64,000 bases of DNA from a virus. Positions 31,823 through 34,097 of the stretch are shown here, piece after piece. Position 1 is the stretch's first letter; each line of letters begins with the position of its first letter. The position numbers and the translations under genes were made by a program. The notes beneath the pieces are model-generated. The model saw nothing but the letters and a program-made list of their open reading frames with translations. It ran no database searches and was not told where the DNA came from. The DNA lies in IMG/VR virus record IMGVR_UViG_3300021364_003460, positions 64,001 through 128,000 of that record. One strand, 5' to 3'.

Positions 31823-31855
31823 AGGAAGTCTTCTGTAAAGTTGGCTTCCTATTTT
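31823..31855 (+). terminator. intrinsic terminator-like hairpin
   Basis: AGGAAGTC...GGCTTCCT then ATTTT. Confidence 0.45.
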
Positions 31856-31877
31856 AATATTTATTAGAGAATAAAAT

Positions 31878-32918: not shown

Positions 32919-32920
32919 AT

Positions 32921-33286
32921 ATGTTTAAGCTATATACGCCAACAAGTAAAATCATAGCAGAATTATATGATTTTACTATAGAAGCTAAACCTACTACTAG
33001 TAACTTTAAGTACCTACCGTTTGCTTTAGTTTCAGAAAACTTACATTCTGAGTTAACTGAAGATATTAATATTAATAATTGCACTTTAGAACTTCCTTAT
33101 ACCGTAGATATCTTTAATAAATATTTTAGTAAACGCTGGAATAACTTTGAGGATAGAAATGACTTTAATACAATGGTTTTAAACCTAAGTATTAAGTTAC
33201 TTGTTTTTACAAAGTTATTTCCTGGTAGAAAAGTTAAATATCAATATAGACTAGAAGGTATAGTTTATTCAATAAGTTTAAAATAA
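32921..33286 (+). CDS. hypothetical protein
   Basis: 121-aa ORF. Confidence 0.6.
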   Translation: MFKLYTPTSKIIAELYDFTIEAKPTTSNFKYLPFALVSENLHSELTEDININNCTLELPYTVDIFNKYFSKRWNNFEDRNDFNTMVLNLSIKLLVFTKLFPGRKVKYQYRLEGIVYSISLK

Positions 33287-33289
33287 TTA

Positions 33290-33345
33290 AGAAAGCTGGC
33301 TAATTGGTAGCCTAATCTATCTGAGTTCAACTCTCAGGCTTTCTA
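33290..33345 (+). ncRNA. tRNA-like RNA lacking the anticodon arm
   Basis: 7-bp acceptor AGAAAGC/GCTTTCT plus unpaired A; D-like hairpin GGCTA-ATTGG-TAGCC; 8-nt linker; T arm CTGAG-TTCAACT-CTCAG; no encoded CCA. Confidence 0.6.
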
Positions 33346-33351
33346 TTTTAA

Positions 33352-33385
33352 TGATATAATATAAGTTATTTTAAAGTTTATATTA
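33352..33385 (+). promoter_or_regulatory. extended -10 promoter plus 20-nt motif copy 2
   Basis: TG-A-TATAAT at 33352-33360 then TTATTTTAAAGTTTATATTA at 33366-33385. Confidence 0.55.
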
Positions 33386-33392
33386 TATTTAC

Positions 33393-34097
33393 ATGACAAC
33401 TGAATACACTAATATAGTTCAGCTAGGTAACAGACTAGTTAATGAACTTAAGTTTTTTTTTGAAAATAAGAATCTAGTTGGCACTAAAGAAGCAAATTAC
33501 ATTATTGAATCTTTTGAAGAGTTTATTGAACAGCTATCTAATCCTATAGTTAGTCAGGAGTTAGATAATTATAAACTCTCTATTCAGAATCCTATTGAGA
33601 AGTTTGGTTTAGTAGAGGAAGTAGTTAAGTGCATTGAAGAAGGTAAAGACAATAAAGAGATAGCTGAAGGGTTAGCTCTTAGAGGACTACCTATTGAGTC
33701 TAAACATATATCTTCCTTTAAGAAAGAATATGAAAAAGCTGATATATTAGCTAAAATAGATAAATCTAACTCTAGTATCTTTGATACTGAAGTTCAATTA
33801 CAAATGATATTTGATACTCTACAAAATCAATTACAAGAGTTGGAGTATGCTGATGAAGAAATGTTACTTAGAGCTAGAACTACTAAGTATTCTTTAAAAA
33901 CAGAAACCTTAAGAGAGATTAGAATGGCAGCCAAAGATGCTAAAGAGTTAGCTGAAGCTGTGCTTAATCTACAGAATACTAAGAAGTTCAATCAAATAGT
34001 ATTAGAAACAGTTAATAAAGAATGTGGTCCAGTTGTCTTTAATAAAGTAGTAACTGAACTTAGGAAGCAGAAACTAATGTTTAACTTTACTCTTTAA
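33393..34097 (+). CDS. hypothetical HTH + coiled-coil protein (possibly small-terminase-like)
   Basis: KDNKEIAEGLALRG..I HTH-like segment followed by long helices. Confidence 0.45.
   Translation: MTTEYTNIVQLGNRLVNELKFFFENKNLVGTKEANYIIESFEEFIEQLSNPIVSQELDNYKLSIQNPIEKFGLVEEVVKCIEEGKDNKEIAEGLALRGLPIESKHISSFKKEYEKADILAKIDKSNSSIFDTEVQLQMIFDTLQNQLQELEYADEEMLLRARTTKYSLKTETLREIRMAAKDAKELAEAVLNLQNTKKFNQIVLETVNKECGPVVFNKVVTELRKQKLMFNFTL

Follow-up and report, generated by a model that had tools for sequence, protein, structure and literature searches.

A 56-nt tRNA-shaped element sits at the end of an RNA ligase operon in the window, by which we mean the whole 64,000-nt stretch of viral DNA analysed here. 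We read it as a deletion remnant of a phage-type tRNA gene, which would now end or cap the transcript of the ligase operon, and we give this reading a probability of about 0.5. A phage-type tRNA gene would once have closed the ligase cassette at its 3' end. Before the window phage and its closest relative diverged, a deletion would have taken out all of the sequence from the end of the D arm to a few bases short of the T arm, leaving the acceptor stem, the D arm and the T arm in place. The element would be co-transcribed with the ligase and a small 121-aa ORF. Its present role, if it has any, would be to end or cap this transcript 7 nt upstream of the next promoter, with the closing stem or the T-arm hairpin, together with the U-rich run, acting as an intrinsic terminator or as a protective structure of the 3' end. 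From comparison of the sequences we infer that the change would have been a deletion rather than an insertion, and that the element would be at most a terminator or a 3'-end structure.

Structure and recognition of the element

The element and its neighbours are listed in Table 1. The tRNA-like fold proposed in the initial annotation (an acceptor stem, a D-like hairpin, a T arm, an unpaired A and no CCA) was confirmed by the sequence and by folding, as the minimum free energy structure is the same Y shape (-18.1 kcal/mol, z = -3.2 against shuffles). A single unpaired U separates the 5' acceptor strand from the D-like hairpin. In the window copy 17 of 17 base pairs are intact, the D loop has its GG, and the canonical T loop matches the T54-Psi55-C56-R57-A58 consensus. 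The reported start 3 nt past a stop codon is also correct, this being the stop of the 121-aa ORF, but the element lies one gene past the RNA ligase and not two, since only that ORF stands between them.

Table 1. Features around the operon end, with positions in the window
Feature	Position	Strand	Description
T1 hairpin terminator	31823-31858	+	8-bp stem, 12-nt loop, tail ATTTTAAT; after the 130-aa gene, upstream of the ligase
RNA ligase, 346 aa	31878-32918	+	N-terminal OB fold and RNA_ligase nucleotidyltransferase domain
121-aa ORF	32921-33286	+	between the ligase stop and the element
tRNA-shaped element without anticodon arm	33290-33345	+	56 nt, Y-shaped fold
Acceptor-like stem, 5' strand	33290-33296	+	7 bp, perfect with 33338-33344
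D-like hairpin	33298-33312	+	5 bp, loop ATTGG (GG present); homologous to the L049 D arm
Linker	33313-33320	+	8 nt where the anticodon arm and variable loop are expected; 90 nt in L049
T arm	33321-33337	+	5 bp closed by G-C, 7-nt loop TTCAACT
Acceptor-like 3' strand and unpaired A	33338-33345	+	A at the discriminator position 33345; no encoded CCA
Tail TTTTAA	33346-33351	+	immediately 3' of the element
Extended -10 promoter of the 234-aa gene	33352-33360	+	TGnTATAAT type; begins 7 nt past the element
Conserved 234-aa gene	33393-34097	+	anchor for finding relatives; homologous to Ma-LMM01 gp123

We scanned the whole 190,865-bp record with a strict pattern (a Watson-Crick 7-bp acceptor and a 5-bp G-C-closed T stem with a TTCRA loop, abutting the 3' acceptor strand). 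The scan returned three sites, all on the plus strand, namely the element and two sites near the end of the record. The same scan of 200 dinucleotide-shuffled genomes returned none, so the element is not a chance structure.

Standard tools do not recognise it. ARAGORN made no credible call at the element with default, intron, mitochondrial or relaxed settings; it reported no tRNA in the window or in the whole record, and its tmRNA search was likewise empty. Rfam gave no family at this position, RF00005 included, either at the gathering cut-off or at E <= 10. The tRNA, Y RNA and tmRNA comparisons put forward in the initial annotation therefore produced no credible call at the site. A blastn search of the element region against 50,697 phage records found no match, and neither did exact-pattern scans of viral contigs for the element with a fixed or a variable gap. 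We rejected two known RNA types. For the tRNA-like domain of tmRNA, the 3:70 pair is A-U and not G3:U70, and the ARAGORN tmRNA and Rfam searches were empty. For a bacterial Y RNA of the YrlA type, there was no Rfam match and no TROVE domain in the 190,865-bp record.

With 8 nt between the D and T arms, no cloverleaf and no match to a tRNA model, the element is not a functional tRNA gene. A tRNA origin is indicated by its homology to a longer element in the relative L049, the T-loop consensus, the G53-C61 pair, the GG of the D loop and the occurrence of its arms in phage tRNA genes. It is also not a conserved structured RNA, as it was found in 2 of about 12 related lineages and its pairing is broken in the second of them, L004.

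The element in related phages

We used the 234-aa protein as an anchor and fetched about 12 distinct lineages; an alignment of the 234-aa family used as a query returned no relatives in IMG/VR. The 56-nt form was found elsewhere only in L004, with 88% identical DNA, and in its identical copy L009. A metagenome scan for the element returned nothing beyond L009, which is a second copy of the L004 variant. In L004 the element follows the ligase stop directly, 3 nt past it, while in the window it stands 3 nt past the stop of the 121-aa ORF, which is a clean insertion in the window phage relative to L004. This ORF belongs to no Pfam family, has only chance-level sequence matches in the PDB, and returned no relatives when used as a query in IMG/VR.

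Most of the ligase-bearing relatives lack the element. It is absent from the site in L005, although the anchor protein of this phage is 91% identical, and also in L006-L008, L046-L048, L066 and the contig of P0017, where ORFs continue into the promoter. In L057-L065 the ligase is absent too. The association of the element with the ligase, to which the initial annotation had given weight, is thus not conserved, since most relatives with a ligase do without the element and some relatives do without the ligase.

The relative L049 (64% identity) carries a 140-nt element at L049:4823-4962, which lies after the ligase stop and before the same conserved promoter. In this element the 5' acceptor strand with the D arm matches the window in 17 of 24 positions and the T arm with the 3' acceptor strand in 20 of 25, the T stem being identical throughout. 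The interior of about 90 nt includes an anticodon-like arm (loop of 6 nt) as well as two hairpins, an inner T-like one and one of 10 bp. With the Rfam tRNA model the 5' 69 nt (L049:4823-4891), which the inner T-like hairpin and a weaker 3' strand close, score 31.7 bits against a cut-off of 29. A full tRNA at this place in related phages had been named as the mark of a simple deletion relic. This was borne out in part, as the L049 element is longer, has an anticodon-like arm and exceeds the Rfam cut-off over its 5' 69 nt. Since the outer arms are shared and the L049 interior is longer, the 56-nt form is most simply read as a deletion derivative. On seven viral contigs, the same T arm together with an A1-type acceptor forms part of real genes for tRNA-Ile, tRNA-Val and tRNA-Ser, and it was found in 0 of 185,579 prokaryote genomes, which points to a phage-type tRNA as the ancestor.

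Comparison with L049 also shows that the helices were once under selection. All six stem differences (6/6) between the window and L049 are confined to three base pairs, and two of these pairs are compensatory (3:70, A-U against G-C; 12:23, U-A against C-G). Such clustering has P ~ 6e-4 if substitutions are placed at random. These changes suggest that the helices were selected as in a working tRNA, which is a statement about past and not about current selection.

The pairing is lost in the nearest homologue, which bears out, at least in part, a second outcome that the initial annotation had named as refuting its proposal. L004 and L009 have U.U at the acceptor pair 6:67, A.C at the outer D pair and G.U at one T-stem pair, and the L004 fold (-8.9 kcal/mol, z = -0.05) is no better than that of shuffled sequence. 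The argument that perfect acceptor pairing reflects a conserved structure does not hold, because the pairing is not kept in the only other copy. Three parts of the wider proposal stand, namely the derivation from a tRNA, the distinction from an att-type half-tRNA and the location at the end of an operon. The conserved structure and the tie to the ligase do not.

When the differences between the window and L004 are polarised with L049, three of the five arose in the L004 lineage, and one of these lengthens the U-run after the T hairpin. The arms of the element are 71-80% identical to L049, compared with 71-81% for coding DNA and 59-70% for 4-fold sites. The window and L004 copies of the element differ at 5 of 56 positions, and the 4-fold sites of the flanking genes differ at 12 of 66 and 26 of 79. 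The element is therefore slightly less diverged than these sites, and a weak constraint on it may exist, but current constraint on its fold is not evident from these alignments.

The patchy presence, the decay in L004, a divergence similar to that of neighbouring DNA and the relatives that manage without any structure at the site would also fit a recent tRNA pseudogene with no role, in which the fold is still intact because little time has passed since the deletion and few substitutions have accumulated. We consider such an inert relic unlikely. The L004 change that gave a longer U-run behind the T hairpin hints that the element has stayed in use as a terminator, and the exact placement of the element between a stop codon and a promoter is not what an inert sequence would call for. 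The intactness of the window copy is more order than a long-dead relic needs, and this counts against the remnant reading.

The operon end and terminator T1

A further point against an inert sequence is the similarity of the 3' arm and tail to T1, a functional-looking terminator. T1 (-14.4 kcal/mol, z = -2.6) is conserved in L004, L006, L007, L049 and the ligase-less relatives. It follows the 130/136-aa gene in nearly all relatives and abuts the promoter of the 234-aa gene where the ligase is absent. The 3' arm and tail of the element (33338-33353) are identical to T1 in 15 of 16 positions and the 5' arm in 6 of 8. The two are near copies 1.5 kb apart in the same orientation, and they bracket the ligase cassette; the 3'-arm-plus-tail motif occurs twice in the whole record, in T1 and in the element. 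We rejected the possibility that the hairpin in the ligase-less relatives is a further-decayed form of the element, since it is the T1 orthologue, which is present in the window upstream of the ligase.

The likeness of T1 and the element could mean that T1 is an older tRNA remnant, or it could come from gene conversion, and we choose neither. The arms of T1 in L049 equal the acceptor arms of real phage tRNA-Val genes, and T1 itself may be an acceptor-stem remnant.

Several predicted features are consistent with termination by the remnant. A terminator pattern scan flags the T arm (33320-33338) with its U-rich tail as terminator-like, the closing stem and tail copy T1, and the next promoter follows after 7 nt. 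The element is atypical as a terminator, having a three-way junction and a U-run of only 4 bases. The relatives without the element have no terminator at the site, and since their ORFs reach the promoter, termination at this position is not required.

The main rival to a remnant acting as a terminator or cap is a processing signal of the t-element kind, which we regard as possible but rather doubtful. RNase P would cut at 33289/33290, and RNase Z or exonucleases would act after 33345. The mRNA of the ligase operon would then end 3 bases past the stop codon, and a small tRNA-like RNA would be released. The 12-bp acceptor/T stack, the canonical T loop, the GG of the D loop, the unpaired base at the discriminator position and the absence of CCA are features that RNase P and RNase Z read, and all are present in the fully intact window copy. 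The element also starts 3 nt past a stop codon in both the window and L004 despite the different upstream gene. Plant mitochondrial t-elements work in this way (PMC1920247). Three findings speak against processing: L004 has lost the fold, most relatives (the 91%-identity L005 among them) do not have the element, and its sequence shows no excess conservation.

The gene order here is primase, PD-(D/E)XK nuclease, 130-aa gene, T1, ligase, 121-aa ORF, element, promoter and 234-aa gene, with a giant ORF on the opposite strand beyond the last. The ligase matches PF09414 (E = 3.2e-12) and PF21189 (E = 1.3e-11). Apart from L046 and L047, the relatives for which the upstream DNA was read keep the -10 promoter at the same spacing, whatever its upstream neighbour. 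A perfect 11-bp inverted repeat made of A and T only (33354-33388) overlaps the -10 box and the leader of the 234-aa gene. It is kept in L004 and L066, the other relatives having a different type of leader, and may serve as an operator or a leader hairpin.

Between the stop of the ligase and the promoter (window 32919-33289; also L004, L006, L007, L047 and L066) lies a hypervariable cassette site. Some relatives have nothing in it, and others have a 54-aa, 74-aa or 121-aa ORF, a 214-aa plus a 32-aa ORF, or a tRNA-like element. The ligase beside it is likewise present or absent depending on the relative.

Genome context and comparison with known systems

The phage proteins distantly match those of Microcystis phage Ma-LMM01 and Microcoleus phage My-WqHQDG, so the window phage is probably a large cyanophage. 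Its 190,865-bp IMG/VR record, labelled as a provirus, is part of a 221,872-bp ENA contig, and the relatives lie on contigs of 231-265 kb. The record looks like a jumbo phage of the lytic type that was cut by the provirus caller, and not like an integrated prophage.

Two paralogous tRNA-like RNAs lie outside the window, at L044:4121-4192 and L044:4528-4595 (G000:C1:190120-190191 and 190527-190594). Both combine a perfect acceptor of 7 bp with a canonical T arm, a variable loop of 5 nt and U73; the D arm is almost absent, and a separate hairpin/T-run terminator follows each of them. Their anticodon-like stem of 5 bp ends in a loop of 8 nt in which the core GUACAU is conserved. Seven base pairs have changed both of their bases from one copy to the other and still pair. 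Standard tRNA tools miss both, while relaxed ARAGORN reads the second as a tRNA with a 4-base anticodon; a pattern search for relatives of the two gave chance matches only.

The same genome encodes the catalytic core of a cysteinyl-tRNA synthetase (CysRS; 366 aa, L043:12742-13842, G000:C1:62741-63841; PF01406, E = 1.6e-111). It ends within the first 25 positions of DALR_2 and hence is without the anticodon-binding part. U73 is the main identity element of CysRS, and the core and the two distal RNAs are possible partners. In our view the distal U73 RNAs and the truncated CysRS core are a more promising lead in this genome than the 56-nt element. A 365-aa ORF (L043:9435-10532, G000:C1:59434-60531) reaches the catalytic ArgRS family PF00750 only at the border (23.0 bits against a cut-off of 23.3) and has no sequence match in the PDB; it may be a second synthetase-like fragment or noise. 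A further RNA_ligase-domain protein of 203 aa is encoded at L069:2867-3478.

Such a set of genes brings up a role of the element in trans. The excised RNA, with or without CCA, would be a decoy for toxins that attack tRNA acceptor ends, or a substrate or cofactor of the RNA-repair or synthetase-like enzymes of the phage. The adjacent ligase, a protein with a PNKP-ligase domain, the CysRS core without its anticodon-binding domain and the two other non-canonical tRNA-like RNAs with their seven compensatory pair changes would all suit a mimic of this kind. We nevertheless hold it to be very improbable. The decoy proposed in the initial annotation is implausible against anticodon nucleases, as the element has no anticodon loop for them. 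Its A73 and A3-U70 fit neither the CysRS rule (U73) nor the AlaRS rule (G3:U70). Moreover, the linkage to the ligase is not conserved, the fold is lost in L004, the element has no promoter of its own, and the record contains no gene for Ro60 or for a CCA-adding enzyme.

A related idea, which we find quite improbable, is a maintained anticodon-less elbow RNA that host RNase P and RNase Z would cut, that would receive CCA, and that would be used in trans with the RNA toolkit of the phage (the ligase, Pnkp, Hen1, the CysRS core and the two non-canonical tRNA-like RNAs). One possible use would be to soak up host toxins that act on the acceptor ends of tRNAs by modification or cleavage. Under this idea of a maintained RNA, L004 would represent a loss of function.

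My-WqHQDG has a GenBank-annotated 286-nt tRNA-Arg (CCU) at L003:5539-5824 on the minus strand, with an insert of about 215 nt in the anticodon loop, and it adjoins a PD-(D/E)XK nuclease gene. Neither ARAGORN nor Rfam at the gathering cut-off calls it, and it is probably an intron-containing phage tRNA. We rejected a link between this intron-bearing tRNA and the element, as there is no convincing sequence relation or exact synteny. The Tyr and Met tRNAs of Ma-LMM01 are unrelated to the element, and the ligase neighbourhoods of My-WqHQDG and Mic1 have no tRNA alongside.

For the favoured reading, a tRNA remnant at the operon end, the relatives place three stages side by side: a degenerate element of 140 nt, an anticodon-less form of 56 nt and a form that no longer folds. 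Seen in this way, a tRNA mimic of striking perfection can be a gene caught in the course of decay. The T1-like closing stem and tail hint that remnants of tRNA genes can be reused as structures at operon ends. In phage annotation, such elements need to be compared with relatives before they are called decoys.

The element belongs to known kinds, the tRNA remnants and the tRNA-like elements of operon ends, and is not a new class. With the tRNA-like domain of tmRNA, the YrlA Y RNA and mascRNA it shares elbow-type tRNA mimicry without a decoding anticodon, but it differs from them in having no Rfam or ARAGORN match, no reading frame for a tag, no Ro60/TROVE gene and no conservation. Like intrinsic terminators, T1 included, it is a stem followed by a U-run that would end a transcription unit, with the 15/16 match to T1; unlike them, it has a three-way junction in place of a small loop inside its closing stem, and its U-run is short. 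The t-elements of plant mitochondria have a non-canonical tRNA-like fold with a conserved T-arm motif and direct cleavage by RNase P and RNase Z (Forner et al. 2007, PMC1920247). The element resembles them in placing such a fold directly at an mRNA end, whereas it belongs to a bacterial and phage system, is not conserved among relatives and, as judged from its sequence, would offer the structural prerequisites only. Another likeness is to pseudogenes and deletion derivatives of phage tRNAs. It differs from these in its clean lack of an anticodon arm and variable loop, in the perfection of the remaining helices and in its exact terminator position. It shares with them the 7/5 acceptor/T stack, the G53-C61 pair, the T-loop consensus and the GG of the D loop, and it is homologous to the longer, tRNA-scoring element of L049 and matches phage tRNA genes in its arms.
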